Shown: positions 25,559-42,161 of the stretch, piece by piece
How positions within the stretch are numbered: position 1 is the first letter of the stretch
Layout of the letters: each line of letters begins with the position of its first letter
From: an uncultured Bacteroidales bacterium
Lineage (GTDB): Bacteria; Bacteroidota; Bacteroidia; Bacteroidales; UBA932
Assembly (NCBI GenBank): GCA_944323245.1
Contig: CALURT010000013.1
Location: 274 to 64,273 of the forward strand
Length of the DNA stretch: 64,000 nt
Direction: 5' to 3'
Program-made: the position numbers and the translations under genes
The notes under the pieces: model-generated
Databases searched by the model: none
What the model was told of the DNA's origin: nothing
The model's input: the letters and a program-made list of their open reading frames with translations, nothing else

Positions 25559-26230
25559 ATGAGATGTAAAAACTGCGGTTGGGAAAATGAATCCGGCAGT
25601 ACAAAATGCGAAAAATGCAATGCTCCCCTTTCCGACCCGGCAACGGCCCAATACGAAAACAGATCATTCGGTTCTTCTGAGAACGTAAACCTTAAAGGTA
25701 CAGTTTCGGAAGACAGTTTCTTCGGCAACAGACCAGCATCCGGGGGGGGCAATTTTCATGAATCCGGCAAATGCCGCAAATGCGGCTATCCTTTGGCACA
25801 TGGCATGACCGTATGCCCGATGTGCGGGACACCAACCGGGAACAACACCAATCACGACTTCAACAGGGGCTACGACTCCGGCCCTTCAAACCAAGCATCC
25901 CCATCAAGACAAGGGACTGTAAATCCGTGGGCTGCTCCCAATTCCGGAGCATCCTGCTCCTTGAAACCATTGGCGTGGGACAATGAGGGCGAACACGAAG
26001 CAATGCGTCTGTCCGGGGACAGGATTATCCTCAACAGGGCGAATACTGACCCTGCCAACAATACGATTACTTCTGGAGAACAGGCCGAACTGACTTTCGA
26101 AAACGGAGCCTGGTATATCTGCGACAAGAGCTATCAGAAGACGACATACGTCCATGCCGGCCACAAGATGAAACTCGAAAAGGGTGACATCATAATCCTC
26201 GGGAACAGACGGTTCGAATTCAATTCCTGA
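25559..26230 (+). CDS. Zinc-ribbon + FHA domain protein
   Basis: Four CxxC pairs (CKNC, CEKC, CRKC, CPMC); C-terminal FHA-like region ILNR...TYV...LEKGDIIILGNRRF. Confidence 0.75.
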   Translation: MRCKNCGWENESGSTKCEKCNAPLSDPATAQYENRSFGSSENVNLKGTVSEDSFFGNRPASGGGNFHESGKCRKCGYPLAHGMTVCPMCGTPTGNNTNHDFNRGYDSGPSNQASPSRQGTVNPWAAPNSGASCSLKPLAWDNEGEHEAMRLSGDRIILNRANTDPANNTITSGEQAELTFENGAWYICDKSYQKTTYVHAGHKMKLEKGDIIILGNRRFEFNS

Positions 26231-26236
26231 TTTGCC

Positions 26237-27520
26237 ATGCCGGAATATGACATAGCGGAAAGGTGTGAATTCCATTGCGGGGACACCCTTGACGGCAAAT
26301 ACAGGATAGAACGTCTGTTGGGAGAAGGTTCTTTCGGGACTGTCTACAAGGTAAGCGACGCCGGCGGCAATGAATATGCTGCCAAACTGCTGAAATTGTG
26401 GGCCGTAATGCCTGAAATATCCAAAAACCTCCGGGACAGGTTCACGATGGAGTTCGAGACCGGACGGATAAAAAGCGACAACCTTGTACATTCCCATTCC
26501 TACGGCGAAGTAAAAGGCAATCCGTACATTGTGATGGAGTATTGCCCGAACGGTGATTTGCGCCACTATGCCTCCTCGCACCACGTAGACTATGTCCGTG
26601 TCGGGAAACAGGTCCTGAGAGGCTTGGGCGACCTGCACGGCTGCGGCAAGGTACATAGAGACCTGAAGCCGGAAAATGTCCTGCTCCGCAGGGACAATAC
26701 CGCCGTTCTGACGGATTTCGGAATTTCCGGAGACAGGAACAAGCGCATGACCGAGCGAGGCTGGATAGGCAAGCCGCAGCAGATATTCGGGACATATCCC
26801 TACATGCCTCCGGAACAGGTAAACCCTCCGAGAGGTGGCCAGGCTACGGTATTGCCGACCACAGACATTTTCTCTTTCGGAGTCATGATGTATGAACTCC
26901 TTGTCGGGGATCTGCCTTTCGGCGAACTGAATGAAGATACCCTGCACACCTATCTTGCAAACGGCAAGACGGGTAAATGGGACAGGGATGCCCTGCGGAA
27001 AGCCGACAGGTCGGGAGTATGGCTTCCGGTCATTGAAGGCTGCCTTGTCCCGGACTTCAAGAAAAGGCTTCAGAGCACGGAAGAAATCATAAGGATGTTG
27101 CCATGCGATCCCGAAGCATACCGTCAGGAACCTGTGTACAGGTCTTTCATGAATGTCCGCACCGGCATTCTGTTAAGAGTGATGCAGGGAGAGGAATACG
27201 GCAAGGTCTACTGTCTTGACAGCCTGCTGCATGGGAACAGGATTCTGACAGTCGGACGTATGGACCGATCCGTAAGGAATTCCATTCCCGTACAGGAAAC
27301 CGGAAGCGCATACGTATCACGCATGCACTGCACACTTGAAAAGGACGGCACGACAGGGAAATGGTTCATCAGGGACGGGCAATGGGACGGGAACTGGTGG
27401 AAACCGTCCCTCAACGGGACTTACGTCAACTCGACCGAAGTCGGTGAATCCGGAATGCCGGTAAAGCCGGGGGACATCATCTCAATCGGCGACGTGAAAC
27501 TACGTGTAGAAGGATATTAA
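26237..27520 (+). CDS. Hanks-type Ser/Thr protein kinase with C-terminal FHA domain (soluble)
   Basis: LGEGSFGTVY, YAAK, HRDLKPEN, DFG, YMPPE; FHA motifs VGR, VSRMH, NGTYVN. Confidence 0.9.
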   Translation: MPEYDIAERCEFHCGDTLDGKYRIERLLGEGSFGTVYKVSDAGGNEYAAKLLKLWAVMPEISKNLRDRFTMEFETGRIKSDNLVHSHSYGEVKGNPYIVMEYCPNGDLRHYASSHHVDYVRVGKQVLRGLGDLHGCGKVHRDLKPENVLLRRDNTAVLTDFGISGDRNKRMTERGWIGKPQQIFGTYPYMPPEQVNPPRGGQATVLPTTDIFSFGVMMYELLVGDLPFGELNEDTLHTYLANGKTGKWDRDALRKADRSGVWLPVIEGCLVPDFKKRLQSTEEIIRMLPCDPEAYRQEPVYRSFMNVRTGILLRVMQGEEYGKVYCLDSLLHGNRILTVGRMDRSVRNSIPVQETGSAYVSRMHCTLEKDGTTGKWFIRDGQWDGNWWKPSLNGTYVNSTEVGESGMPVKPGDIISIGDVKLRVEGY

Positions 27521-27534
27521 TCAAAGTAATTTAT

Positions 27535-28425
27535 ATGGTCATTATGGTCAGAAGAATTGTCATTCAGATACTTTTCATGCTGCTCTGCACGGCGGTGCCT
27601 GTCCTTGCGCAGGACTGCTACAAATTTACCCGCACGCAGGCGATTTCATATTACGAAAAGGGAGAGTACCGTATTGCACGCGACCAATTCATTGCAGCAA
27701 AGGACTGTCCCGACAAACCTGAGGATAACGACCTCGACTCGTGGATAGCCAGATGCGACTCCGCAATCGCCGAAATTGGGCGAAAAGCCGAAGCGGAACG
27801 GCAACGCCGCATCGAGGAAGAACGGATAAAGGCAGAGGAGCGAAAGAGGGAGGAACAGGCCCGCATTGCCGAAGAGAAACGGCTTGCCGAGGAAAAGAAG
27901 CGTGAGGAAGAACGGAGACAGCAGGAAATCAGGGACAGTATAGCAAGGTACAGTTTGACTGAAACCCAAATGGTCCTGTACCCGTTCGGAGTGCTTACGG
28001 ACAAAACGGAAACCCTTACTATTGCGGATGTGCTGAGCGGATTGGAGTCTGTATTTGCCGGAAATGTCAGCAAATATCAAAGTTCTGTATTCCTTTACGG
28101 CATATCTCCTTATTTCTATAAAGGATTTTCCGACAAAATAATCGCCACATGTTATTTTTCCGAAGGAAAAGTTTCCCTATATTCATACGACCTCACATTC
28201 CTCAAGTCAGAATATTCCCAAAAGGAAGTGCTGGACATGGCAAATGAATTTGCCGCCGCTCTGACTGCAGCAGGAGCTGAAATGTCCGTGGTTGAACCGA
28301 TTGGAACAGAGTCTTTGCGAATTGAAGGAGAATTTGCCGGAAAAACAATATGGATTAATTCCTCAGAGTGTTCTTATGTCCAAAAATTCGACAGCTGGTA
28401 TTTTAGAGTGACTTGTCTCCAATGA
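27535..28425 (+). CDS. Secreted protein with TPR-like helices, E/R/K coiled coil and unknown C-terminal domain
   Basis: Signal peptide ending VLA-Q, YYEKGEY...AKDCPDKP...WIARC, long charged helix. Confidence 0.65.
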   Translation: MVIMVRRIVIQILFMLLCTAVPVLAQDCYKFTRTQAISYYEKGEYRIARDQFIAAKDCPDKPEDNDLDSWIARCDSAIAEIGRKAEAERQRRIEEERIKAEERKREEQARIAEEKRLAEEKKREEERRQQEIRDSIARYSLTETQMVLYPFGVLTDKTETLTIADVLSGLESVFAGNVSKYQSSVFLYGISPYFYKGFSDKIIATCYFSEGKVSLYSYDLTFLKSEYSQKEVLDMANEFAAALTAAGAEMSVVEPIGTESLRIEGEFAGKTIWINSSECSYVQKFDSWYFRVTCLQ

Positions 28426-28462
28426 TTCTCACCTGTAAATACATGAATATATAGACAAAGCG

Positions 28463-29397
28463 AACTATGGAACTGCAACCCGGAACATTGTTCAACGACC
28501 GCTACCGCCTTATCAGGGAAATCAGCCGGGGCTCGTTCGGCGAGGTCTGGCTCGCCCAGGACGAACGCCTCGACCTCGAAGTGGCGGTAAAAGTGTACAT
28601 CGCCCTCGACAGCAGAGGAATCGAGGAGTTCAAGACCGAGTACAAGGTCGCATATACTCTAAACCATCCGAACCTTCTCCATGCACATCATTTCGATGTC
28701 TGCGGGAACAGGCCTTTCCTCGTGATGCCGTTCTGTCCCTCCTCGGCAGTCGCACATATCGGACAGACAGACGAACAGACAGCATGGAGGTTCATCATGG
28801 ATGTCGCTGCTGGTCTCGATTTCCTTCACGGGCAGAACATCGTACACAGGGATATAAAGCCCGACAACATCCTGTGCGATGCCGAAGGACATTTCCTCAT
28901 CACGGACTTCGGAATCAGCGTAAAGATGAAAAGCACATTGCGCAGGAACTCAACCCGCAAGATGGATACTAATGCCGCAGGGACTATCGGATACATGGCC
29001 CCGGAACTCTTTTCAGCGAATCCCGACGCAGTGATGGCCACTGACATCTGGGCTTTGGGGGCTTCACTTTATGAAATGATTACGGGAGAACTTCCGTTCA
29101 TGGGACAGGGAGGCGTAATGCAGCTCCACGGGGCAGAAGTCCCGGAACTGAAAGGGGATTTCTCCCAGGCCCTGAAGGAGACGCTCGCTGCATGTCTTGC
29201 AAAGGACCCGTGGGACAGGCCGACTGCCGATCGGCTCCACGAATTCGCCAAGGCCGTCCTCGATGGAGGCTGCCCCTCCGCCCCGTGGATAGAATCCGCA
29301 GCGAAAAAACGAGAGTCGAAAAGTACCGTCAAAACCTCTCGCCGGACCGTGAAACAGAATGCTCCGCAGCCTGTCCCCGCCGACCCAAACGCCACCC
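28463..29397 (+). repeat. Kinase-module direct repeat, copy 1 (partner 33775-34709)
   Basis: Near-identical DNA at constant offset 5312, with scattered mostly synonymous differences. Confidence 0.92.
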
Positions 29398-30041
29398 GGC
29401 CAGTCGGGGAACAATCGCAAAAACTGCTTCGGCAGAATGATTCTGACAGAAAAATCTGGGTACTGCTGATTATCAGCATAGGAATACTTGTATTCAATCA
29501 GTTGATACGCCTGTTCTCATACGAATATCCGATACTGCCGCAATGGGAACACGTTTTCCGACATGGTTACGGAGAGACAATTCTGATTCTTCCGGCATTG
29601 GCTGCATTGGTATTACTCACTGCCAGAGCCGTGCTTTTCTGCATGATATTCAGAAAAAGCAAAACCCCGCTACAAAAAATATCCGCAGCAACAGTAGCGA
29701 TAAGTATCATCTACGACGTGATCATCACCATTTGGCTTAACGCGTCAAAAGAAACGTTGGGGAATGAAATTTTAGGATTGCGTTTCCCGGTGTGGCTTTG
29801 GGCAGTGTCATTCATTTTAATGAATATCCGCACTTTGGGTATATGCATTCTGATCTGGTGCACAGGCAAAAACATTGCAGCTAAGATAACGGCAGGAATA
29901 TACCTGCTCCTGCTACTGGCTGACTTGGTCAATCATGACATCAGCAATTTGTATTACGTCACGGTACATTCCATTGCATTAATTTCCATGGTTATAATAT
30001 ACAATATCTACATGAAATCAGCAATGCTTCCAAAACAATAG
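28467..30041 (+). CDS. Membrane Ser/Thr protein kinase A (kinase + multi-TM tail)
   Basis: SRGSFGEVW, VAVK, HRDIKPDN, DFG, GTIGYMAPE; about six hydrophobic segments after aa ~330. Confidence 0.9.
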   Translation: MELQPGTLFNDRYRLIREISRGSFGEVWLAQDERLDLEVAVKVYIALDSRGIEEFKTEYKVAYTLNHPNLLHAHHFDVCGNRPFLVMPFCPSSAVAHIGQTDEQTAWRFIMDVAAGLDFLHGQNIVHRDIKPDNILCDAEGHFLITDFGISVKMKSTLRRNSTRKMDTNAAGTIGYMAPELFSANPDAVMATDIWALGASLYEMITGELPFMGQGGVMQLHGAEVPELKGDFSQALKETLAACLAKDPWDRPTADRLHEFAKAVLDGGCPSAPWIESAAKKRESKSTVKTSRRTVKQNAPQPVPADPNATRPVGEQSQKLLRQNDSDRKIWVLLIISIGILVFNQLIRLFSYEYPILPQWEHVFRHGYGETILILPALAALVLLTARAVLFCMIFRKSKTPLQKISAATVAISIIYDVIITIWLNASKETLGNEILGLRFPVWLWAVSFILMNIRTLGICILIWCTGKNIAAKITAGIYLLLLLADLVNHDISNLYYVTVHSIALISMVIIYNIYMKSAMLPKQ

Positions 30042-30065
30042 ACAACAAAGAAAACAGATAACATC

Positions 30066-31643
30066 ATGCCACAATCTACACAAACCTACAGACGTTCCCT
30101 TGCCGGCTCGGTCGGAGCCGGAATGAAATCGGTCTTCGGAGGAAGCGGCCGGCGGTTCTATACCTTGGTACACAAAGTATCCAGCAAATACCACAAGGCC
30201 GGAGAAGCCCAGCAGATCATCGTCGACCAGATAGAGATCGGACGCGACCCTCTCTGCCAAGTCAGGTTCGACGAGTCATTCGTTACGGTCAGCCGCCGCC
30301 ATGCGGCCATAGTCAAGGACGGCGACAACTGGAAACTCATCCAACTCTCGCAGACCAACTCCACCTATCTCAACGGCCACAAGGTCCAGAAAGAATGGTA
30401 TCTTCAGAACGGAGACGAAATTCAGCTCTCCACAAACGGACCGAAACTCGGGTTCATCATACCCGAAGGCAAGAAAGGACTTGTCAGCAGTATCAACCTG
30501 ACTGCCCGTCTCAATCTGTTCCGCCAGCAGGCTCTGCGTCCGTATAAAAATGCCATTACGGCATTGGCGTGCCTTCTCGTCGCCGGTGCAGGAGTTGCCG
30601 GTGCGCTGATATACAGCCAGCACAAGGAAATCAGCGAACTGAACAGGATGTACGTACAGGCGCAGGATGTAATAGAATCCGTCAAAAGAGAAAACAATGA
30701 ACTCGGTAAGGCCTTCGAAGACATGGAGGAAAAAGCCCGTCAGCAGGACTCCATAATAGATGCCGGCCGAAAGGAAATCAACCGCATCAAATCGGCTTCC
30801 CCTCAGGCCAACGTGGCCCGGCTCATCGAGTCCGTGCGGTCAAGCGTCTATTTTATCGTGACCACGGTATATGTCAGGATAGGAAATGAAACGCAGGCAA
30901 TCGGAGCAAGCAGCGGAACAGGATTCCTGCTCAAGGACGGCAGATTCGTGACGGCCCGGCATTGCGTGGAGCCATGGCTGTTCGGAGGAGACATCGAGCT
31001 CAATGTAATGAACGAATCCTATGACAATGTCACCGTATGGTCGGAGATCAAGGCTTATGGAGTGAAGAACGATGACTTTACCCTACGCAGTTCGGACTTT
31101 ACCATTGACCGCAGCATGGATGTCATGTTGAACGCCGGTACGGATGACTACGGAAATCCGATGAAAATGAGATTGGCTTACTATTACGAATACACGGACC
31201 CGGAAACAGGGAAAGTCACGAAATACGGGGACATCAGAATGGGAGGCACGGACTGGGCAGTCGCAAGGACAGCCAAACGCGGGACAATCGAAGCTGACGC
31301 CAACCTTTCAGCATCCTTGACACAGGGAACTGAAGTCCATGTGCTCGGATTCCCTGCCGGTTTGGGTGCAGGAGACGGACAAAGCCGTATCGAACCGATA
31401 TATAACAAGATGAATGTGGCACGCAACGGGCTGAACAGGCAGGGCTGCATTATGGTAAGCCAGGGCGTGGCCCACGGAAATTCCGGCGGCCCGGTATTTT
31501 CCGTCAAAGACGGCAGGATTTATGCTGTCGCCATCGTCTCAAAACTCGAATCCGCCACGCAGCAATACAATGACAGCGGAACAGCCATAACACAACAGCA
31601 ACAGCAATATGACCAATTGGTCCCTATAAGGAACATACGATGA
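30066..31643 (+). CDS. FHA - TM - coiled coil - trypsin-like serine protease
   Basis: FHA motifs IGR, VSRRH, NSTYLNG; TM AITALACLLVAGAGVAGALIY; catalytic triad motifs TARHC, TDWAV, GNSGGP. Confidence 0.88.
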   Translation: MPQSTQTYRRSLAGSVGAGMKSVFGGSGRRFYTLVHKVSSKYHKAGEAQQIIVDQIEIGRDPLCQVRFDESFVTVSRRHAAIVKDGDNWKLIQLSQTNSTYLNGHKVQKEWYLQNGDEIQLSTNGPKLGFIIPEGKKGLVSSINLTARLNLFRQQALRPYKNAITALACLLVAGAGVAGALIYSQHKEISELNRMYVQAQDVIESVKRENNELGKAFEDMEEKARQQDSIIDAGRKEINRIKSASPQANVARLIESVRSSVYFIVTTVYVRIGNETQAIGASSGTGFLLKDGRFVTARHCVEPWLFGGDIELNVMNESYDNVTVWSEIKAYGVKNDDFTLRSSDFTIDRSMDVMLNAGTDDYGNPMKMRLAYYYEYTDPETGKVTKYGDIRMGGTDWAVARTAKRGTIEADANLSASLTQGTEVHVLGFPAGLGAGDGQSRIEPIYNKMNVARNGLNRQGCIMVSQGVAHGNSGGPVFSVKDGRIYAVAIVSKLESATQQYNDSGTAITQQQQQYDQLVPIRNIR

Positions 31644-32497
31644 AATCACTGACAGCAACATTGGCCCTGTCATTCATCACATTGACAGGATTTGCCCAAA
31701 TCTCGTTTCAGACAAACAACCAGCAGATTATCGAAGACGCCGTAGCCGGAGGTCTCCTGATCGTCCGTCAGGAATATCAGTTGGAGGATACGGTGTCCAT
31801 GAAGCGTTATACTTGGAACAACCGTCCCGAATTCGGCAGTACCCTTTCGTTCTGCGTGCTCGCGGAAAACGGATATGTCATCTCCAATTCCGTCCTCAAG
31901 CCATGGATGCATGACCCCAAATTCGACAAATACAAGGATTCCGCATATCGCCCGGTACTCACTGACACATGGTACAAGTCCGCTGCCTCAAGGGATTTCC
32001 GCAAGGCGGACTGCGTTGCAACGGACGACACCGTACATTTGTCCGACTCAAGTTTGGTTTATGTCAAGGACACTCTTTTCGGACAGGGCTTTGCAATTGA
32101 CACTATGCCCGGGACAAAGGACGGCTGGATAGTATGGCTGACTTCCAAAGATGAGGAGAGCATCGGATCCGACTCCCTTATGCTGATAACTTATCGCCAC
32201 AAACTGACCGTACTGGCAGACAGGGACATTTACGAAATCCCTGCCCCGACCTCATCAAGATACGTCATCGGAGGTGTCTATGTGGAACCGGGATACACCG
32301 GCATAGGCAAAATTGAATTCCGACTCGCTGGAATAATCGTGAAAAACGGAGAAAAGTGGCAGATGTGCAAAATATGCCGGACGAAAAAGGCAGGCAATGA
32401 AAGCACCCTGTCCGAAGATACCGGGACACTGACTCCGGCAGCATCGGAAACGCATGGAATGGAAGAAACAAAAGAACAAGGTCATGAAAAAGATTAA
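31640..32497 (+). CDS. Secreted hypothetical protein, possibly a catalytically inactive trypsin-fold protein
   Basis: Signal peptide; 4-nt overlap with the upstream stop; loose similarity to the neighbouring protease without catalytic His/Ser. Confidence 0.6.
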   Translation: MKSLTATLALSFITLTGFAQISFQTNNQQIIEDAVAGGLLIVRQEYQLEDTVSMKRYTWNNRPEFGSTLSFCVLAENGYVISNSVLKPWMHDPKFDKYKDSAYRPVLTDTWYKSAASRDFRKADCVATDDTVHLSDSSLVYVKDTLFGQGFAIDTMPGTKDGWIVWLTSKDEESIGSDSLMLITYRHKLTVLADRDIYEIPAPTSSRYVIGGVYVEPGYTGIGKIEFRLAGIIVKNGEKWQMCKICRTKKAGNESTLSEDTGTLTPAASETHGMEETKEQGHEKD

Positions 32498-33776
32498 GTT
32501 CAGGTTAGCTGCATATACCGATGCAGCGGGCAAAAGGAACGATGTCCCTCCCCTTTATGGCAACGAGGACAATTTTTACGTGGACGCAGACCTGTCGGAA
32601 GAGCCGCAGGGAGAATTTTCTTCCGACGAGGAAAAGGCCCTGTCCGATTACGGTTCGCTCTTGGTCATTGCAGACGGCATGGGCGGGATGAATGCCGGAG
32701 AAGTCGCATCCGAAATAGCCGTCCGTACCGTCAAGGAATGTTTCGCACATAAAAATCTGACTGACCGGATCGTCGCAGACGCTGAATCGAGGGAACGCTA
32801 TATGGAGCATGTCGTGGAGGAAGCGGATGCTGCAATCAAGGCCCGTTCGCAGGAAAACAAGGAATGCGAAGGGATGGGAAGCACCATAATCATGGTATGG
32901 ATATGCGACGGAGTTGCTTCCGTCACATGGTGCGGCGACAGCAGGGCATACCTGTTCCGTGAACCGAAAGGCATAGCGCAAATCTCGAAAGACCATTCTT
33001 ATGTGCAGTCCCTTGTAGACGACGGCAAAATTACCGAAGAAGAGGCGTTTGACCACCCTTATGGGAACATCATTACACGGAGCCTCGGAGATCCGGAGAA
33101 AAAGGCAAAGGCTGACAGCGTGACTGTGCCTTTGTACAAGGGGGACATAATTCTGGTCTGCAGTGACGGCTTGAGCGGAGTTCTGCGGGACCATCCTTTG
33201 TCCGACGGCACACCTGCGGCAAATCTCGAAGAAATCATACGCTCCAACCGCTCTTCGATGCAGTCCTGCCGAGAAGCCCTGTTCTCTGCTGCCGAACAGG
33301 CCGACTGGTATGACAACGTGACCGCAATCCTGTATGAGATTACGGACGGGGCTGCGGCTCCGGAACCTGAATGTGACAAGGCAGGAACTGAAACCGCCGT
33401 CAGCAAGAGTTTCATCAATATCAGAATCAGCAAAAAAAGGCTTCTGTACTGGATCATTGCACTGATTGCGGTTGCAGCCGTCGCCTGCGGCGGATTTTTC
33501 GGGATAAAGTTCCTGAAAGAAACGGACCAGCCGGCACCTGTGGAGGAGCAACTGCAGCAACCGGTTCCTGAAAATCCCGGCACGCAAGTACCTGCTCCAG
33601 GAGAATCTCAGGACGAACCTTCGGCTTCTGCCTCCGTTGATGTCTCCGCTCCCCTGACTGACGAAAAAATCTCAGGCAATAGTCTGACACCGGTGACTGA
33701 CTCAATCAATAGTCTGACACCGGCAACTGATTCAATCAATGGACTTACACCTGCCCCTGAACCTCAAAGACAATAA
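32484..33776 (+). CDS. PP2C-family Ser/Thr phosphatase with C-terminal TM and low-complexity tail
   Basis: IADGMGG, CGDSRAY, CSDGL, DNVT; TM LLYWIIALIAVAAVACGGFFGI; start re-called at ATG 32484. Confidence 0.9.
   Translation: MKKIKFRLAAYTDAAGKRNDVPPLYGNEDNFYVDADLSEEPQGEFSSDEEKALSDYGSLLVIADGMGGMNAGEVASEIAVRTVKECFAHKNLTDRIVADAESRERYMEHVVEEADAAIKARSQENKECEGMGSTIIMVWICDGVASVTWCGDSRAYLFREPKGIAQISKDHSYVQSLVDDGKITEEEAFDHPYGNIITRSLGDPEKKAKADSVTVPLYKGDIILVCSDGLSGVLRDHPLSDGTPAANLEEIIRSNRSSMQSCREALFSAAEQADWYDNVTAILYEITDGAAAPEPECDKAGTETAVSKSFINIRISKKRLLYWIIALIAVAAVACGGFFGIKFLKETDQPAPVEEQLQQPVPENPGTQVPAPGESQDEPSASASVDVSAPLTDEKISGNSLTPVTDSINSLTPATDSINGLTPAPEPQRQ
33678..33757 (+). repeat. 30-bp coding tandem repeat (~2.7 copies) in PP2C tail
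   Basis: AATAGTCTGACACCGG(TG/CA)ACTGA(C/T)TCAATC twice plus a degenerate third copy; encodes NSLTPVTDSI NSLTPATDSI NGLTP. Confidence 0.85.
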
Positions 33777-34709
33777 CTATGGAACTGCAACCCGGAACAT
33801 TGTTCAACGACCGCTACCGCCTGATCATGGAAATCAGCCGGGGCTCGTTCGGCGAGGTCTGGCTCGCCCAGGACGAACGCCTCGACCTCGAAGTGGCGGT
33901 AAAAGTGTACATCGCCCTCGACAGCAGAGGAATCGAGGAGTTCAAGACCGAGTACAAGGTCGCATATACTCTCAACCATCCGAATCTTCTCCATGCACAT
34001 CATTTCGATGTCTGCGGGAACAGGCCTTTCCTCGTGATGCCGTTCTGCCCTTCCTCGGCGGTCGCACATATCGGACAGACAGACGAACAGACAGCATGGA
34101 GGTTCATCAGGGATGTCGCTGCTGGTCTCGATTTCCTTCACGGGCAGAACATCGTACACCGGGATATAAAACCCGACAACATCCTGTGTGATGCCGAAGG
34201 ACATTTCCTCATCACGGACTTCGGAATCAGCGTGAAGATGAAAAGCACATTGCGCAGGAACTCAACCCGAAAGCTCGAATCAAACGCCGCAGGGACTATC
34301 GGATACATGGCCCCGGAACTCTTTTCCTCGAATCCGGACGCAGTGATGGCCACTGACATCTGGGCTTTGGGGGCTTCCCTGTATGAAATGATTACAGGGG
34401 AACTTCCGTTCATGGGACAAGGAGGCGTAATGCAGCTCCACGGGGCAGAAGTCCCTGAACTGAAAGGGGATTTTTCCCAGTCCCTGAAGGAGACCCTCGC
34501 TGCATGCCTTGCGAAAGACCCATGGGACAGGCCGACCGCCGACAGACTCAATGAATTCGCCAAGGCCGTCCTCGATGGAGGCTGCCCCTCCGCCCCGTGG
34601 ATAGAATCCGCAGCGAAAAAAAGAGAGTCGAAAAGTACCGTCAAAACCTCCCGCCGGACCGTGAAACAGGATTCTCCGAAGCCTGTCCCCACCGCCACGA
34701 ACGCCACAG
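33775..34709 (+). repeat. Kinase-module direct repeat, copy 2 (partner 28463-29397)
   Basis: Near-identical to 28463-29397. Confidence 0.92.
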
Positions 34710-35938
34710 TCCCGTATTCCGGCGACATGAATGACGGCCCGGTCATAAGGGAACGCAACTGGTTCGTAAACGTGTGTATATGGCTCTCTATCGTGGCGAG
34801 TGTATTGTACACTGCAATCTATTGCATTTTGACTATCAACAACTATGAATATACAGGAGCGTCCCGTGCAGCAGCGGTGTGCAGCACATTGTCCGCGATT
34901 GCCGGATGGATGGTCTGGAAATACAATCGTCTCGGACTTTGGCTGTATCTTGTCGCCCAATGTGTAATTTATGTTGTCATGCCACTTAAGATCACCGGCA
35001 TGACTATTCTCTGGCCCGGCACTATAATCGGAGCGGTCTTCGTCATCGGGATTTTTCTGATACGCAGGAACGGGATTTCCACATGGAAACTCATGGATTA
35101 CAGGATAAGAGGCATAAGCACGTATATTGTAGCAGCTATAGGAGCGGTTGCCATGATTGTGTCGATGGTAATTCCGAACGGAGCGGTCATAGGCGCCCGC
35201 AAAAGTATTGAAAAATACCTGCTCAATGTCGGCGAATGCAAAGAGATAATAGCTCAGGAACAGCCTTCTGCAGAGTCACTGATAGACGCAAAGAGAATCC
35301 TTGAGAGAATCGAGAGCGATGATGTCCGTTATAGAGACATCGACAGTCGTTACTCGGAAAGTCCGGCACTCAAAAATGCCCTGAAAGACAAGACAGAAGC
35401 TGTCGCAGAACAGTGGGCGACAGCCGCCAAGTCACAGACACGAATCGGAAACACTGACAAGGCGGCCGAATTCCTGTCAACCGCCTTGCTGTTGGACGAA
35501 AAATACAGGCCGGATTTCGAAAAGGCGGCTGAAAAGGTGGGGTACATGAAGCCGCTGTCTATAGAATTGAAGACAGACGGCGGGGAATGGGGAGAAATTC
35601 TCTACGCCGACAAAATCAGATACCTATACCCGAGGCTTACGTACAAATCATTGGATTCCAAAGAAAATCATGACGTCAAGCTGATTGTGAAAATATACAA
35701 CAACGGACAACTGAAATACAATGCTTCAGAATACTCATCCTCCTATAGTTACAGTGAAGACATTACGGTAGATTCAGCGGGAGGAAGATGTGAACTGACA
35801 GGCTGGGGCAGCGATAAGGGTGGCGTATATTCGGCCGGCCCACTCCTCGTGGAAGTGTGGTGCAATGGCAACAAACTGATAAGCAAGTCAGCCACAATAT
35901 ACAACAGCGACCTTCGTCCCAACTACATTGGTGATTAA
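33779..35938 (+). CDS. Membrane Ser/Thr protein kinase B (kinase + multi-TM + extracytoplasmic domain)
   Basis: Same kinase motifs as kinase A; about five TM segments, then a helical region and a beta-rich C-terminal domain (LTGWGS...VEVWCNG). Confidence 0.9.
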   Translation: MELQPGTLFNDRYRLIMEISRGSFGEVWLAQDERLDLEVAVKVYIALDSRGIEEFKTEYKVAYTLNHPNLLHAHHFDVCGNRPFLVMPFCPSSAVAHIGQTDEQTAWRFIRDVAAGLDFLHGQNIVHRDIKPDNILCDAEGHFLITDFGISVKMKSTLRRNSTRKLESNAAGTIGYMAPELFSSNPDAVMATDIWALGASLYEMITGELPFMGQGGVMQLHGAEVPELKGDFSQSLKETLAACLAKDPWDRPTADRLNEFAKAVLDGGCPSAPWIESAAKKRESKSTVKTSRRTVKQDSPKPVPTATNATVPYSGDMNDGPVIRERNWFVNVCIWLSIVASVLYTAIYCILTINNYEYTGASRAAAVCSTLSAIAGWMVWKYNRLGLWLYLVAQCVIYVVMPLKITGMTILWPGTIIGAVFVIGIFLIRRNGISTWKLMDYRIRGISTYIVAAIGAVAMIVSMVIPNGAVIGARKSIEKYLLNVGECKEIIAQEQPSAESLIDAKRILERIESDDVRYRDIDSRYSESPALKNALKDKTEAVAEQWATAAKSQTRIGNTDKAAEFLSTALLLDEKYRPDFEKAAEKVGYMKPLSIELKTDGGEWGEILYADKIRYLYPRLTYKSLDSKENHDVKLIVKIYNNGQLKYNASEYSSSYSYSEDITVDSAGGRCELTGWGSDKGGVYSAGPLLVEVWCNGNKLISKSATIYNSDLRPNYIGD

Positions 35939-37123: not shown

Positions 37124-38035
37124 TCATTGTACGGCTATTGTCTCATAAACAATGCGTGAAATTCCGGCAATCGCCGCTTCGCAGGCCTCTGCCGGTTCAT
37201 CGGCATTCTTCACGAACACCGCTATACAGTAATGCCTTCCGTCGGACAATTCCACTATTCCGACATCGTTGACTGCTGTCAGGCGTCCGGTTTCATCCGT
37301 ATCCCCCGTGCCTGTCTTGTGTGCGAGGACTGCATCCGAGCCTTCAAGACCTTTCTGCAGGCGGGCATTTCCGGTCGTGCATGAGAGCATTATTTCCATC
37401 AGCTCTCCTTGCATTTCCGGGCCGAGAATTTCTCCAGAATAGAGTTTTTCCAAAAGGTGTACGGCAGCAGCAGGCGAAGCCGTGTTGAAATATGAATTTC
37501 CGATATTTTCGTGCATCTGTGCCTCGGTCATGGATATGCTGAACCCGTCTATTCCGTATGAACGTATGCACGAATCCGTCTGTGCAGGAGTTACGAAGCG
37601 GCTGAAAAGGATGTCGCAGGCATTGTTGTCGCTCAATCCCAAGGAATACTCCAACAATTCCCTGACGGTCAGGTCAATATTACCTTCAGGAAAAGTATCC
37701 CGCAACGGGCTATAGGTGTTTTCCTGCAGGTCCTGCCGTGTAATATGCACAGTCTCGTCAAGAGACCTTCCGCTCCTTTCAAGGAAACCGCAGACCGCTA
37801 TCGCCTGAGGCAGTTTGACAACGCTCGCCAACGGATACTCCCCCGGCTCTCCCGCTACCGCCGATTCCCCGTCATACAACACTGCCACGCCGACCTCCGC
37901 ATCCACCTGAACTGCAATGGAATCTATCCGGCTTTCCAATTCCCCTGCATCAAATACGTTCCTGCTCCCGCAGGATACGGAAAGGATTCCCGCCACGCCC
38001 CACACTACCGCCGCAATCAAACATTTCAGCTTCAT
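37124..38035 (-). CDS. Class A (subclass A2-like) serine beta-lactamase, predicted lipoprotein
   Basis: SxxK (ASVVK), SDN, omega-loop EAQMH, HKTG; lipobox-like LSVS-C at aa 22. Confidence 0.85.
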   Translation of the reverse strand: MKLKCLIAAVVWGVAGILSVSCGSRNVFDAGELESRIDSIAVQVDAEVGVAVLYDGESAVAGEPGEYPLASVVKLPQAIAVCGFLERSGRSLDETVHITRQDLQENTYSPLRDTFPEGNIDLTVRELLEYSLGLSDNNACDILFSRFVTPAQTDSCIRSYGIDGFSISMTEAQMHENIGNSYFNTASPAAAVHLLEKLYSGEILGPEMQGELMEIMLSCTTGNARLQKGLEGSDAVLAHKTGTGDTDETGRLTAVNDVGIVELSDGRHYCIAVFVKNADEPAEACEAAIAGISRIVYETIAVQ

Positions 38036-38053
38036 AAACGATGAGATTTTTCA

Positions 38054-38090
38054 GTTTGTCAAAGATAAAGAATTTGAAAGCAATTCACAA
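38054..38090. repeat. 37-bp direct repeat, left copy; contains the minus-strand -7 box for the beta-lactamase
   Basis: GTTTGTCAAAGATAAAGAATTTGAAAGCAATTCACAA; one mismatch to 38914-38950; CAAAGATA (38060-38067) reads TATCTTTG on the minus strand. Confidence 0.85.
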
Positions 38091-38131
38091 CAAATTGTTG
38101 TATAATTATACAATTTTTGTATATTCGCAGA

Positions 38132-38464
38132 ATGAAACGGATAATTGCATATAAATGTTATTTCAGCGACTTCATAAATAAATTGTCGTATGATGAAATC
38201 CGGAAGATACAACGTGCCTTGGACTTGTTCAAAGTCGAGGAATTGATGCCACGGCATTTCATCAAGTATATCCGTGACGGGATTTATGAGTTCAGAGTGA
38301 CATGCAGACGCAATGAGTTCCGCATATTTTTCATTTATGACGGCGATACTATTGTAGTATTGTTCAACGCTTTCAAAAAGAAAACGCAGAAGATTCCAGA
38401 CACAGAAATCAGAAAGGCGATAAAATTAAAGGAGGAGTATTATGAAACTAAAGGAAATAAGTAA
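38132..38464 (+). CDS. Type II TA toxin, RelE/ParE superfamily (Gp49/DUF891-like)
   Basis: DGIYEFRV, FRIFF, VVLFNAFKKKTQK; precedes an HTH gene. Confidence 0.8.
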   Translation: MKRIIAYKCYFSDFINKLSYDEIRKIQRALDLFKVEELMPRHFIKYIRDGIYEFRVTCRRNEFRIFFIYDGDTIVVLFNAFKKKTQKIPDTEIRKAIKLKEEYYETKGNK

Positions 38465-38747
38465 GGACATTTACGATGTCGATGCCTGGCTCGACGAAGG
38501 CCTCGGCAAAGAAGGAACTCCGGAACGGGAGAAAAACAGGGAAAAGGCATGGGAGGAATACAATGCACAGATTCTCCTTGATGCAAGGAAGAACGCCCAT
38601 CTGACACAGGCGGAGCTTGCGGCTCGCATCGGTGCGGATAAATCATACATCTCACGAGTTGAACGCGGACTGACTGTCCCTTCCGTAGCCACACTTTATA
38701 AAATAGCTGCAGCAATGGGACTGACCGTGGAACTCCGCCCGATGTAA
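38442..38747 (+). CDS. XRE-family HTH antitoxin
   Basis: LTQAELAARIGADKSYISRVERG; overlaps the toxin 3' end. Confidence 0.85.
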   Translation: MKLKEISKDIYDVDAWLDEGLGKEGTPEREKNREKAWEEYNAQILLDARKNAHLTQAELAARIGADKSYISRVERGLTVPSVATLYKIAAAMGLTVELRPM

Positions 38748-38913
38748 ATTCAGTATTTGACTAATCAAAGTCCGGATTTTCCGGGCTGCTTCATCAGCAT
38801 TTGATTGATGTTTGATTAGGACTCATCAAAAGTTCGGGGGCGTTTTCACAATTCCCCTTTTTATTTCCGGCAAAAATGAAGATCGCGACTGCCAACAGAA
38901 TTTCAAAGAGGAG

Positions 38914-38950
38914 GTTTGTCAAAGATAAAGCATTTGAAAGCAATTCACAA
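38914..38950. repeat. 37-bp direct repeat, right copy
   Basis: GTTTGTCAAAGATAAAGCATTTGAAAGCAATTCACAA, offset 860 from the left copy. Confidence 0.85.
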
Positions 38951-38997
38951 TTGCAACGCTGTCAGATACGATAATAAATCAGTTAAAATAAAAAACA

Positions 38998-39192
38998 TCA
39001 GCGGCTGAATTTATCCCTGATTGAATCAACAAGAGAATTAAATATCCCAGGCTTCAATAGGAGCACGGCCACTACAAGCACCAATAATCCGGCAAGTCCA
39101 AAATATACATCAACGGAGAACGCTGCACCAAGCAATATGATCACTGCCACGACAAGAATAAAAGTCAGGCATCCTTTGTTTGTTGTATTCAT
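38998..39192 (-). CDS. Small two-TM hypothetical membrane protein
   Basis: 64 aa with two hydrophobic stretches; ATGA-coupled to the upstream ORF. Confidence 0.5.
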   Translation of the reverse strand: MNTTNKGCLTFILVVAVIILLGAAFSVDVYFGLAGLLVLVVAVLLLKPGIFNSLVDSIRDKFSR

Positions 39193-39392
39193 ACTTTATA
39201 AATTCTATTCACTCTTTGGAAAGCCACTCCATAAGCCATAAAAGCAATGCTATGCCACCGAGAAAGAGTGCAGCCAGAAGCAGGAAATACATAAACATTC
39301 CAAAATTCTGAAAGATTATCAATGATATAAAAAAGAAGTGCCGCCTCTATGATAGCGACAAGTTTCAAGACTTTTTTACTGAATGTATTCAT
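39189..39392 (-). CDS. Small hydrophobic hypothetical protein
   Basis: 67 aa; its stop overlaps the next start (ATGA). Confidence 0.4.
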   Translation of the reverse strand: MNTFSKKVLKLVAIIEAALLFYIIDNLSEFWNVYVFPASGCTLSRWHSIAFMAYGVAFQRVNRIYKV

Positions 39393-39731
39393 ATCATTTC
39401 ACTGCTTTAATAGTTCCTTCGATAATCATTATCACATGCCTCGGGTTGCGGCATTCAGTATGCGTCAAATGACAGATTTCAAGTATCCGTAGACGTATTT
39501 GTCATATTTATGCCATGAGAAAATATGTATACCTGCATAAATTAAATCATGCCTGTCTTCAAGAACAAATATGTTATCGGATTGGTTCATGTATGGCATA
39601 AAAATATAAACTTTAATTTGATAAACAATGTCTACCATGTTGTTTCCGGTTTGTCAAAGATTAAAAAAGTTGAATTGTGCTTTAATATGGCGCATCAGTG
39701 CTTCATCTTTGCATCGTAAAAACAATTCATT

Positions 39732-40037
39732 ATGAAACAGGAAAAGCAACAGGAAAAGAAACGACATCTTGCAAATTTTCACATTGCAGGATTCGGTTAT
39801 TGGGATGGCTGTGAAGCGTTTGAACATCTCAAAATCGGTACATTGTTAGAACTCTCCAGAGAAGATGAAAATCATTTCGATCCTTATGCAGTAGCCATTT
39901 ACTACCATGAACACAAATTAGGCTTTATTCCCCGTGGAGACAACTCTGAAATTAGCAAATATCTTGATATGGGGTGGAATGATCTTTACGAGGTTCGGGT
40001 TACAAGAGTCTCCCCTGACGCCCCACCGGAATGGTAA
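39732..40037 (+). CDS. HIRAN domain protein, possibly C-terminally clipped
   Basis: FHIAGF, LELSREDENHFDPYAVAIY, KLGFIPR; ends abruptly at PPEW. Confidence 0.75.
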   Translation: MKQEKQQEKKRHLANFHIAGFGYWDGCEAFEHLKIGTLLELSREDENHFDPYAVAIYYHEHKLGFIPRGDNSEISKYLDMGWNDLYEVRVTRVSPDAPPEW

Positions 40038-40119
40038 CTTTCATCTTTAACTTTAGAATGCGCCAAAAAAGTGCATAAATAATCATTTTTTGATTACCTT
40101 TGCACTAAAATTGCTCAAC

Positions 40120-40923
40120 ATGACAATCAGAGAATGGATCCGACATAGAGAAATAAGTGGCTTCCCCACTTTTTCGGTTGAAGAAATAAAGCAGGAATTT
40201 CATAATTATTCGGAACAGGTCATCAGAAATGAACTTTTTCGATTATCGTCTCATGGGATTTTATATCCTGCGTACAGGGGGTTTTATGTTATCATCCCGC
40301 CACAATACGCAGCTAAAAGAATTGTACCTCCGCAATATTACATTGACCAGCTGATGTCATATCTGAAAAAGCCATACTATATAAGTCTGTTGAATGCTGC
40401 GGAAATTTTAGGTGCTGCACATCAGCGTCCTCAAAGATTTTCAGTAACGACAATATTCCCGAAGTCGTCCGTTTCGTCATCAAAGAACAATACACTTGTC
40501 TGGACATACCGTAAAGAGATTCCATCGGACTTTTTACTATCAAAAAACTCTGAGACCGGAGTAATCCATTACTCAAATGTAGAATTGACAACCATTGACA
40601 TTGTACAGTATGAACAATATATCGGAGGTCTTTCCAGAGCCGCTACTATTCTGGAAGAATTGGCTGAGAAAATGGATTTTCGAAATGCGTCCAGGAATTT
40701 GTTCCGGCATACTTCAATCTCCACTATACAACGTTTAGGATATATACTGGAAGAGGTTCTTGGACAGAAAGAAATTGCTGAAGTGTTGCATACAGAATTG
40801 ATGTTATATGCCAACCGTTTCAGATACGTCCCGTTAAAGACCAATCGGTCAGATAATAATGCAGAAAAGAATACTCGCTGGAAAGTTAATATAAATTCGA
40901 TAATAGAAGTAGACGAAATATGA
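40120..40923 (+). CDS. Type IV TA antitoxin, AbiEi family
   Basis: N-terminal wHTH, YRGFYVIIPP, YYISLLNAA...GAAHQ, IQRLGYILE; -7 box TACCTTTG at 40095-40102 supports start at 40120. Confidence 0.82.
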   Translation: MTIREWIRHREISGFPTFSVEEIKQEFHNYSEQVIRNELFRLSSHGILYPAYRGFYVIIPPQYAAKRIVPPQYYIDQLMSYLKKPYYISLLNAAEILGAAHQRPQRFSVTTIFPKSSVSSSKNNTLVWTYRKEIPSDFLLSKNSETGVIHYSNVELTTIDIVQYEQYIGGLSRAATILEELAEKMDFRNASRNLFRHTSISTIQRLGYILEEVLGQKEIAEVLHTELMLYANRFRYVPLKTNRSDNNAEKNTRWKVNINSIIEVDEI

Positions 40924-41388
40924 TAAACAGAGATACCTCCTACCATTCCGCTTCGATTGAAAATTGAGATAAATTGTTTTGAACATTTCAATGAACTCGG
41001 ATTGGTCAAAATGCCGTTTGAGATGGAAAACAGTTGGTTCTCGGGTAAATGCGAAATAACGACATATTGCCTGAATGAACTTTTGGGGACAAAACTCAGT
41101 GCTCTGTATCAACGAAAAAAAGGAAGAGACCTTTTTGATTTATATGTAGCTCTGTCGGAAGCCTCCGTAAATATTGATGAAATACTCCGTTGTTACAGAC
41201 GTTATATGTCCTTTGTCGTACAACAGCCGCCAACATACAAACAATTCATCAATAATGTGGAGGAGAAAATGTCAGATCCGGAATTCCTTGGTGACACTCA
41301 AAATCTGATTCGCCCTGACAGAGAATTTGATCCACAGTCTGGTTATAAACTTGTTTTAGAAAAATTAATAGAACGAATGCACAAATAA
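40920..41388 (+). pseudogene. AbiEii nucleotidyltransferase toxin, internally deleted and frameshifted
   Basis: Coupled ATG 40920 reads MINRD then stops after 15 codons; the C-terminal half (EIPPTIPLRLKIEINC...ALYQRKKGRDLFDLY) is in another frame; no GGT/SEDID region. Confidence 0.78.
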
Positions 41389-41423
41389 ATATCGCTATAT
41401 TTACCAATTCAAAATTACAGGAA

Positions 41424-42161
41424 ATGAAATACGGGAAATGGTTGGGAGGAGGGCTCGGATGGGCTTTCGGAGGTCCGATAGGAGCGCTCATAGGATTCGT
41501 GCTCGGGGCTCTGATCGACAACGAAGAAAAGGCAGCGGAGCAGCAGACGGGCAGGTCATCACGAAGACACACGTTTGAGGGAGACTTCAAGATAAGCCTC
41601 CTCGTGTTGATTGCCTGCATCATAAAGGCAGACGGGATCAGGAAGACATCGGAACTCGCCACGGTAAGACGCATACTTATCAGGGTATTCGGTGACTACG
41701 GGACGGACGATGCCATGGAAATACTCGAAAGACTGTTGCAGCAGGACATCGACGAGACGCAAGTGGCATGGCAGATAAGCCGCAGCACGAACTACTCCAC
41801 GAAACTTGAACTGATACACATACTCTTCGAAGTGGCATACGCCGACGGTCATGTATGCAATTCGGAAATGACAGCAATCGAAAGAATTGCGTCGCTTTTC
41901 GGAATATCCGCCATCGATTTCAACGCCATCCGTGCGCCCTACACAAAATCGAATGATTCAAATTGGGCATACACGGCCCTCGGGATAAGTTCTTCCGCCT
42001 CTGACGAAGAAGTCAAGAAAGCCTACCGGCGAATGGCGATGAAATATCATCCGGACAAATTGACCGGTCTTGGGGAAGATGTCAAAAAAGCCGGAGCGGA
42101 AAAATTCCGTGCCGTGCATGAAGCCTACGAATTCCTGAAAAAAGAACGTGGAATGAAATAA
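41424..42161 (+). CDS. DjlA-like co-chaperone (TM + TerB-like + J domain)
   Basis: Gly-rich N-terminal TM, IIKADG, ADGHV, J-domain KYHPDK. Confidence 0.85.

Follow-up and report, generated by a model that had tools for sequence, protein, structure and literature searches.

The gene at 30066-31643 of the DNA stretch analyzed here (hereafter the window: 64,000 nucleotides of an uncultured Bacteroidales bacterium of the UBA932 lineage, GenBank assembly GCA_944323245.1, contig CALURT010000013.1, positions 274 to 64,273) encodes a protein in which a predicted cytoplasmic FHA domain is joined, through one transmembrane (TM) helix and a helical stalk, to a predicted periplasmic serine protease domain. 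This FHA-TM-protease is the fifth gene of a cluster of eight same-strand genes that runs from 25559 to 35938 with only short gaps or overlaps. The interpretation favored here, with a probability of about 0.5, is that this bitopic protein of the inner membrane links periplasmic proteolysis to the state of serine/threonine phosphorylation in the cell. Such an inside-out direction of control is supported by the predicted topology and by the phospho-signaling context of the gene, which shares its operon with Hanks-type serine/threonine kinases and a PP2C phosphatase.

The start of the open reading frame (ORF) brings the N-terminus into register with those of homologues, and the gene is present in one copy in its own 2.3-Mb genome. 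A Pfam scan placed an FHA domain at residues 57-121 (E = 4e-16; 59.5 bits, with the gathering threshold at 20.7) and a Trypsin_2 domain (PF13365) at residues 284-488 (E = 2e-9; 39 bits, threshold 27.6), while no match to a PDZ domain was obtained anywhere in the 525-residue protein. The protease motifs TARHC, TDWAV and GNSGG are found at residues 296, 395 and 471, respectively, and a D-S-I tripeptide is found at residue 228. An AlphaFold2 model, built from a 69-sequence alignment (mean predicted local distance difference test score, pLDDT, 86), orders the chain as an FHA sandwich, a continuous helix at residues 145-241 that includes the TM segment, a flexible linker, and the protease domain at residues 250-525. 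Across 119 relatives, the 15 residues flanking the TM helix contain on average 4.6 lysines plus arginines on the N-terminal side versus 2.0 on the C-terminal side, and the N-terminal side is the more basic in 114 of them. Because there is a single TM segment, and because the charge bias obeys the positive-inside rule in those 114 relatives, the FHA domain and the protease are predicted to lie on opposite sides of the membrane, in the cytoplasm and periplasm, respectively. A first-pass annotation of the gene, made from the DNA letters and their translation, had proposed an FHA domain, one TM helix and a trypsin domain with its His, Asp and Ser motifs but no PDZ, with the FHA inside and the protease outside; Pfam, hydropathy and the motif positions confirm the first of these claims, and the charge distribution around the one TM helix bears out the second.

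The FHA domain retains all of the canonical residues for phosphothreonine (pThr) binding and is therefore predicted to be competent for it. No fewer than 98% of the 119 closest relatives keep G59-R60, S76, H79, N98, T100 and N103, and these positions do not vary in the 69-sequence alignment. Likewise, in a set of 118 divergent representatives of the family, R60, S76, H79 and N98 are present in 116-118, and the full canonical set (G59-R60, S76, H79, N98 and N103-G104), which aligns to that of GarA, in 109-118. GarA and OdhI are the closest solved FHA proteins by both sequence and fold (TM-score 0.88 to 6i2q_B), and they too have a conserved, Thr-containing tail ahead of the FHA domain, which is phosphorylated and then binds the protein's own FHA. 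In the FHA-TM-protease, T5 of this tail is conserved in 111 of 119 members, Y8 in 94, and a Ser or Thr at position 11 in 114; the tail has low confidence in the AlphaFold2 model, suggesting that it is flexible. FHA domains favor hydrophobic or aromatic side chains at pT+3, a preference that T5-x-x-Y8 would fit. The motif is also reminiscent of the self-binding phospho-tail of GarA and OdhI. Those proteins differ in being soluble regulators of tricarboxylic acid cycle enzymes, whereas the FHA domain here is tethered to a membrane protease. Between the FHA domain and the membrane lies a conserved juxtamembrane segment (mean column identity 0.78), in which the modeled helix begins at residue 145 and runs on into the TM segment.

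On the other side of the membrane, the protease domain is modeled with high confidence (pLDDT about 95) as a double beta-barrel, for which the best Foldseek matches in the Protein Data Bank (PDB) are DegP, DegS and HtrA1 (E = 2e-9 to 1e-7). At least 98% of the 119 closest relatives retain H299, D396 and S473, and likewise the oxyanion-hole motif GNSGGP at residues 471-476, and the triad does not vary within the 69-sequence alignment, so that the protease of this branch can be predicted to be competent for catalysis. The protein shares with DegS the N-terminal membrane anchor, the periplasmic chymotrypsin-fold head and GNSGG; by analogy with DegS, a role in regulated rather than bulk proteolysis is plausible. 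In contrast to DegS, the protein has no PDZ domain, and it possesses a cytoplasmic FHA domain and a heptad-periodic stalk of ~65 residues that DegS lacks. With respect to the HtrA family (S1C), then, the GNSGG core and the closest fold are present and the C-terminal PDZ domain is absent. The match to HtrA by sequence profile is marginal (E about 1e-5), and the domain further differs from HtrA and DegS in its TARHC His motif and in its His-Asp spacing of 97 residues, between which a beta-rich subdomain is inserted.

The first-pass annotation had also regarded the C-terminus as odd, and this description did not hold. The chain ends ...QQQQQYDQLVPIRNIR and stops five residues past the last barrel strand. 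LVPI forms the normal final strand of the second barrel and matches the AVPI or VVPI of relatives that lack the Q-rich loop, which end ...FNWAVPICSIY or ...GFVVPISAVK; P520 is invariant. The Q-rich loop ahead of this strand is a lineage-specific insertion of low model confidence.

The stalk is poorly conserved outside its D-S-I site (mean column identity 0.29), with a length of 56-92 residues across the family. Its hydrophobic residues recur with a periodicity of 3.5 (power 12.3, versus 2-3 at periods 3 and 4), and AlphaFold2 predicts a single helix as far as residue 241, where the pLDDT falls to about 50. On the basis of this periodicity the stalk is probably a coiled coil, as had been proposed, which in turn hints that the protein is oligomeric through its stalk. 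Embedded in the stalk is D228-S229-I230, a match to D-(S/T)-(A/I/L/V/M/T), the general O-glycosylation sequon of the Bacteroidota. A D-S-[I/L/A/V] tripeptide occupies the aligned position in 93 of 119 members, and at least one sequon occurs in the stalk of 96% of members versus 23% of shuffled stalks. The first-pass annotation had taken this putative glycosylation site as support for a periplasmic location, and its conservation on the predicted periplasmic side agrees with that placement.

The gene neighborhood was compared across 80 genome loci, with each neighbor counted only in those loci that had enough flanking sequence. A PP2C gene is found downstream of the protease gene in every locus that could be scored (71/71), and a gene for a 285-residue protein lies immediately downstream in 55/71. 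Upstream, a soluble kinase with a C-terminal FHA domain (STK-FHA) is present in 56/62 loci and a double-zinc-ribbon protein with an FHA-like domain (ZnR-FHA) in 53/59, while a membrane kinase (STK-TM) follows the PP2C gene in 49/60. The protease gene is part of a conserved six-gene operon, which contains two to three Hanks kinases and has the order ZnR-FHA, STK-FHA, FHA-TM-protease, 285-residue protein, PP2C-TM and STK-TM. The membrane kinases of the window carry a Thr-rich juxtamembrane segment, KRESKSTVKTSRRTVKQ, with the pattern NAT-x-P-V/Y.

The 285-residue protein has a signal peptide, and the ATGA overlap of its gene with the protease stop codon predicts translational coupling. No Pfam family matched it even at E <= 10, nor did any NCBIfam family. 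AlphaFold2 nevertheless predicts a chymotrypsin-like double barrel (pLDDT 88.6; predicted TM-score, pTM, 0.79), and the top PDB matches returned by Foldseek are all PA-clan proteases (TEV, HtrA1, 3CL and MarP). No conserved set of His, Asp and Ser was found among 64 orthologues, in which only P88, W89 and G223 are invariant, and where the protease reads ...TARHCVEPW the aligned sequence is ...ISNSVLKPW. On the strength of the AlphaFold2 and Foldseek results, the protein is predicted to be a secreted pseudoprotease, with the PA-clan fold but without the triad. Profile-profile comparison with the protease domain gave a probability of only 40-52%, confined to the region of the His motif; this did not establish the pseudoprotease as a duplicate of that domain, and a common origin of the two is no more than plausible.

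The pseudoprotease and the PP2C phosphatase share a short motif in their tails. [LI]TP occurs in the disordered C-terminal tail of the pseudoprotease in 44/64 orthologues, versus 1.7 expected from shuffles (about 25-fold), usually as x-L-T-P-[V/I/A]; in the predicted periplasmic tails of PP2C it occurs in 33/75 orthologues versus 5.6 expected (about 6-fold). In the window, the motif of the pseudoprotease lies around residue 264, and the PP2C tail (LTP region at residues 405-440) has three copies of LTP and two of D-S-I, in the repeat SLTPVTDSIN-SLTPATDSIN-GLTPAPE. Among the 12 window proteins checked, only these two tails contain [LI]TP.

The family itself is large. A word-index search retrieved >2,500 homologues, and almost all of the 120 best have the FHA and trypsin Pfam signature; an exhaustive HMMER search of representatives at 50% identity gave 305 hits at E <= 1e-30. 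Loci are found in the Muribaculaceae, Prevotellaceae, Paludibacteraceae, Rikenellaceae, Odoribacteraceae, Tannerellaceae, Dysgonomonadaceae and Bacteroidaceae, and cultured carriers include Odoribacter laneus YIT 12061 and Palleniella intestinalis. The distribution is patchy, with 1 of 401 genomes sampled phylum-wide (the window's own), 7 of 401 order-wide and 3 of 37 in the same genus, frequencies that depend on the first-look filter of the search; the module is therefore accessory rather than housekeeping. One genome of the same genus (G818) has two copies of the FHA-TM-protease gene, at C34:8803-10401 and C2:185264-186742, while most members of the genus have none. Catalytic residues are not universal in the wider family. 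Only 95 of the 118 divergent representatives keep His-Asp-Ser, whereas the FHA residues are essentially invariant. The dead branches, about 20% of the divergent representatives, have His and/or Ser replaced (classes R-D-D and Q-S-L/F/Y), and their members (among representatives P0150-P0254) retain both the TAR-x-x-x-E-P-W framework and the pThr-binding residues of the FHA domain.

Among the 120 best homologues, those with a name carry just the generic labels "FHA domain-containing protein" or "S1-C subfamily serine protease", and full-text searches of the literature found no functional study of the family. The combination of FHA and trypsin domains is not in itself new, having been tabulated in a 2008 survey (PMC2605481) that lists an "FHA-FHA-Tryp" architecture for NP_811686.1 of Bacteroides thetaiotaomicron. 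That Bacteroides protein likewise has an FHA and a trypsin-like domain; it is a possible orthologue of the FHA-TM-protease and stands as an entry in a domain table, with no function studied, which was the sole mention that the literature searches turned up. New here are the conserved operon, the conservation of the sequon, the pseudoprotease partner, the shared LTP motif, the N-terminal tail and the dead branches.

Under the favored reading, the kinases of the operon would phosphorylate threonines at which the FHA domain can dock, in their own juxtamembrane segments or in the T5-x-x-Y8 tail of the protease in the manner of the GarA/OdhI switch, and PP2C would erase these marks. Engagement of pThr by the FHA domain would alter the location and oligomerization of the protease in the membrane, and with this change of place or assembly the range of targets open to cleavage by the periplasmic head would shift as well. 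Leading candidates for partners or substrates would be the pseudoprotease of the same operon and the PP2C tail in the periplasm, both with the enriched L-T-P-[V/I/A] motif in disordered tails. The first-pass annotation had suggested allosteric activation, with pThr binding replacing the PDZ input. This would be a strict version, and so only a part, of the phospho-coupled reading; recruitment or co-localization is at least as likely as activation through the helix, and recruitment, co-localization or signaling from the outside in are each as plausible as allostery. A more specific trans-envelope phospho-switch, in which cytoplasmic pThr, made by the kinases of the operon, removed by the membrane PP2C and read by the FHA domain (perhaps by way of its own T5-x-x-Y tail), would gate periplasmic cleavage or capture of the LTP tails, is less likely. 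Equally tentative is the feedback loop that it would form, given that the LTP tails belong to the phosphatase itself and to the pseudoprotease. Literature searches found no characterized bacterial precedent for a switch of this kind.

Several observations weigh against phospho-controlled proteolysis. The FHA domain and the juxtamembrane segment (mean column identity 0.83 and 0.78) are more conserved than the protease domain (0.56), and because about 20% of the divergent representatives are catalytically dead, proteolysis is not the core activity that unites the wider family. The pseudoprotease gene is absent from 16/71 loci, more than half of PP2C tails lack the LTP motif, and nothing ties that motif to the specificity of the protease. 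A role of T5 as phospho-acceptor is suggested by conservation and analogy, and passage of a signal through a single TM helix is speculative. Finally, a cluster found in 3 of 37 genomes of its own genus is patchy, and its physiological role is hence accessory.

Some of these same facts would be expected if the signal ran in the opposite direction. The PDZ domain of DegS senses periplasmic peptides and damaged envelope proteins, and here the PA-fold head, together with the pseudoprotease, could bind such ligands while catalysis was secondary or auxiliary; the output would be an FHA domain that sequesters, scaffolds or activates phosphorylated kinases or the phosphatase in the cytoplasm. Such an outside-in sensor, though of lower probability, is the main rival to the favored reading. 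It would account for dead branches that keep their FHA pThr residues, for the location of the strongest conservation in the FHA and juxtamembrane regions, and for a dedicated non-catalytic PA-fold partner. It is also consistent with a predicted docking of the pseudoprotease tail motif as a short strand (local pLDDT about 70) in a tail that is otherwise disordered. Against it, no ligand is known, and the fact that 98% or more of the 119 closest relatives retain the triad and GNSGGP speaks for selection on catalytic activity in the branch to which the window belongs.

Two further explanations are less probable. In one, the protein would be a constitutive envelope quality-control or processing protease whose FHA fold is a mere structural anchor, free of phospho-regulation. 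An N-in FHA fold followed by one TM helix and a periplasmic domain is indeed the topology of YscD, and there is a weak Pfam match to the cytoplasmic domain of that type III secretion protein (Yop-YscD_cpl, PF16697). The match, at 30.7 bits, falls under the gathering score of 33.2, so that membership was rejected, and the near-invariance of R60, S76, H79 and N98 and the obligate synteny with kinases and PP2C make this explanation improbable. Less probable still is an accessory conflict or defense module, in which the cluster would sense attack by phages or competitors and the protease would execute an envelope-directed response. The patchy distribution (7 of 401 genomes in the order sample and 3 of 37 in the genus) would suit such a role, and PADLOC returned kinase models (mad6, PD-T4-6) and an RT-Protease_XI match. 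These matches reflect generic similarity to Hanks kinases and Trypsin_2, with no system-specific partner; PADLOC gave no matches for the FHA-only, pseudoprotease or PP2C genes of the cluster, and a known anti-phage system was accordingly rejected as the principal interpretation. Moreover, the cluster contains no nuclease, methylase, reverse transcriptase or mobile-element genes, and its G+C content is uniform with that of its flanks.

Individual aspects of the arrangement are seen in well-known systems. Cytoplasmic FHA folds are joined across the membrane to extracytoplasmic or transport functions in YscD, PrgH and MxiG of type III secretion systems and in Rv1747, an ABC exporter that provides a precedent for control of a membrane machine by serine/threonine kinases via FHA domains. 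None of these has a protease, and the YscD-type folds lack the pThr-binding residues. In Actinobacteria, the fhaA-fhaB(fipA)-pstP-...-pknA-pknB cluster likewise places a gene for a small FHA protein with one TM helix beside Hanks kinases and a membrane PP2C, and the best NCBIfam match of the present FHA domain is FhaB_Rv0019c. Membership in the FhaB/FipA family (NF049868) was rejected at 41.6 bits against a cut-off of 125. FhaB/FipA has no extracytoplasmic enzyme and the reverse domain order, and the Bacteroidales cluster lacks rodA and pbpA and is accessory rather than core. Finally, MarP (Rv3671c) of Mycobacterium tuberculosis is also a membrane-anchored periplasmic S1 protease without a PDZ domain, but it spans the membrane with four TM helices and lacks an FHA domain. 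The present protein was rejected as a member of the MarP family (NF033740), matching at residues 396-490 with 31 bits against a cut-off of 250.

Coordinates in the window of the eight clustered genes and of the segments of the FHA-TM-protease
Feature	Coordinates	Strand	Description and basis
ZnR-FHA, gene 1	25559..26230	+	Pfam Zn_Ribbon/DZR; double zinc ribbon, degenerate C-terminal FHA-like domain
STK-FHA, gene 2	26237..27520	+	Soluble Hanks-type Ser/Thr kinase, C-terminal canonical FHA; Pfam Pkinase, FHA
Coiled-coil protein, gene 3	27535..28425	+	ORF; no Pfam family; secreted or lipoprotein-like; variable member
STK-TM1, gene 4	28467..30041	+	Membrane Hanks kinase 1; Pfam Pkinase; kinase domain, multi-TM C-terminus
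FHA-TM-stalk-protease, gene 5	30066..31643	+	525 residues plus stop; open ORF
Conserved N-terminal tail	30066..30155	+	Residues 1-30; contains T5-x-x-Y8 and [ST]11; may be phosphorylated and bound by the FHA domain
Cytoplasmic FHA domain (predicted)	30156..30458	+	Residues 31-131; R60, S76, H79, N98; Pfam PF00498
Cytoplasmic juxtamembrane segment (predicted)	30459..30548	+	Residues 132-161; R148, L151, F152, Q155, P159, Y160 invariant
Single TM helix, N-in	30549..30617	+	Residues 162-184; Kyte-Doolittle 2.3, sole hydrophobic segment
Periplasmic helical stalk and flexible linker (predicted)	30618..30812	+	Residues 185-249; heptad-periodic
D228-S229-I230	30747..30755	+	Match to Bacteroidota O-glycosylation sequon in predicted periplasmic stalk
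Periplasmic S1 (PA clan) protease domain (predicted)	30813..31640	+	HtrA-like fold, no PDZ; Pfam Trypsin_2, AlphaFold2, Foldseek
Catalytic triad codons	H299 30960-30962; D396 31251-31253; S473 31482-31484	+	Codons checked
Secreted 285-residue pseudoprotease (predicted), gene 6	31640..32497	+	ATGA overlap with protease stop; disordered tail with LTP motif
PP2C Ser/Thr phosphatase, gene 7	32484..33776	+	Pfam PP2C_2, NCBIfam Stp1-like; TM helix, periplasmic tail
STK-TM2, gene 8	33779..35938	+	Membrane Hanks kinase 2; Pfam Pkinase; TM segments, extracytoplasmic domain

Among the remaining members of the cluster, the FHA-like domain of ZnR-FHA matches Pfam only at E = 0.011, and its canonical His is replaced (TSGEQ versus SRRH), so it may not bind pThr. 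The longest ORF of PP2C starts at 32454, and the start that fits its homologues is 32484. Over residues 1-300, which cover the kinase domain and the Thr-rich juxtamembrane segment, the two membrane kinases share about 97% identity, and they then continue into unrelated TM and sensor parts; this pattern suggests that the catalytic cassette was recently duplicated or underwent gene conversion. The interval that separates STK-FHA from the protease gene differs in content among loci and can include extra kinases. In Odoribacter laneus (locus L038, 6259-7903) it holds a TM coiled-coil protein and a MotA/ExbB-like membrane protein, and in a member of the Paludibacteraceae (locus L060, 4159-4845) an extra small FHA-TM protein. 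In the window, the coiled-coil protein of gene 3 has an N-terminal Cys-flanked module of ~65 residues (CYKF...AAKDC) as its sole recurring part; many related loci have this module (query residues 12-78) next to a membrane kinase or following one. In a comparison aimed at the insertion site, the DUF362 flank gene has no neighbors in common in two genomes of the same genus (L082, L083). The region 38001-42000 of the window has a G+C content of 0.39-0.42, versus about 0.51 elsewhere in the window, and may be foreign DNA.

Regulated envelope proteolysis, as exemplified by DegS, MarP and the site-1 proteases, and signaling by Hanks kinases and FHA domains have each been well studied, and literature searches found no characterized protein that joins the two in one polypeptide. 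To our knowledge, serine/threonine kinase signaling in the Bacteroidota is almost unexplored, and a first output mechanism for these kinases would serve the physiology of the gut microbiome. The existence of a defined six-gene module in gut and rumen Bacteroidales makes the link between phosphorylation and proteolysis directly testable, with mutational handles at R60, S76, S473, T5 and S229 and with the LTP-motif tails as candidate substrates. The pseudoprotease and the dead branches likewise provide a natural setting in which to follow how PA-fold proteases become binding modules. Finally, the trans-envelope switch, if true, would join eukaryote-like kinase signaling to regulated periplasmic proteolysis.

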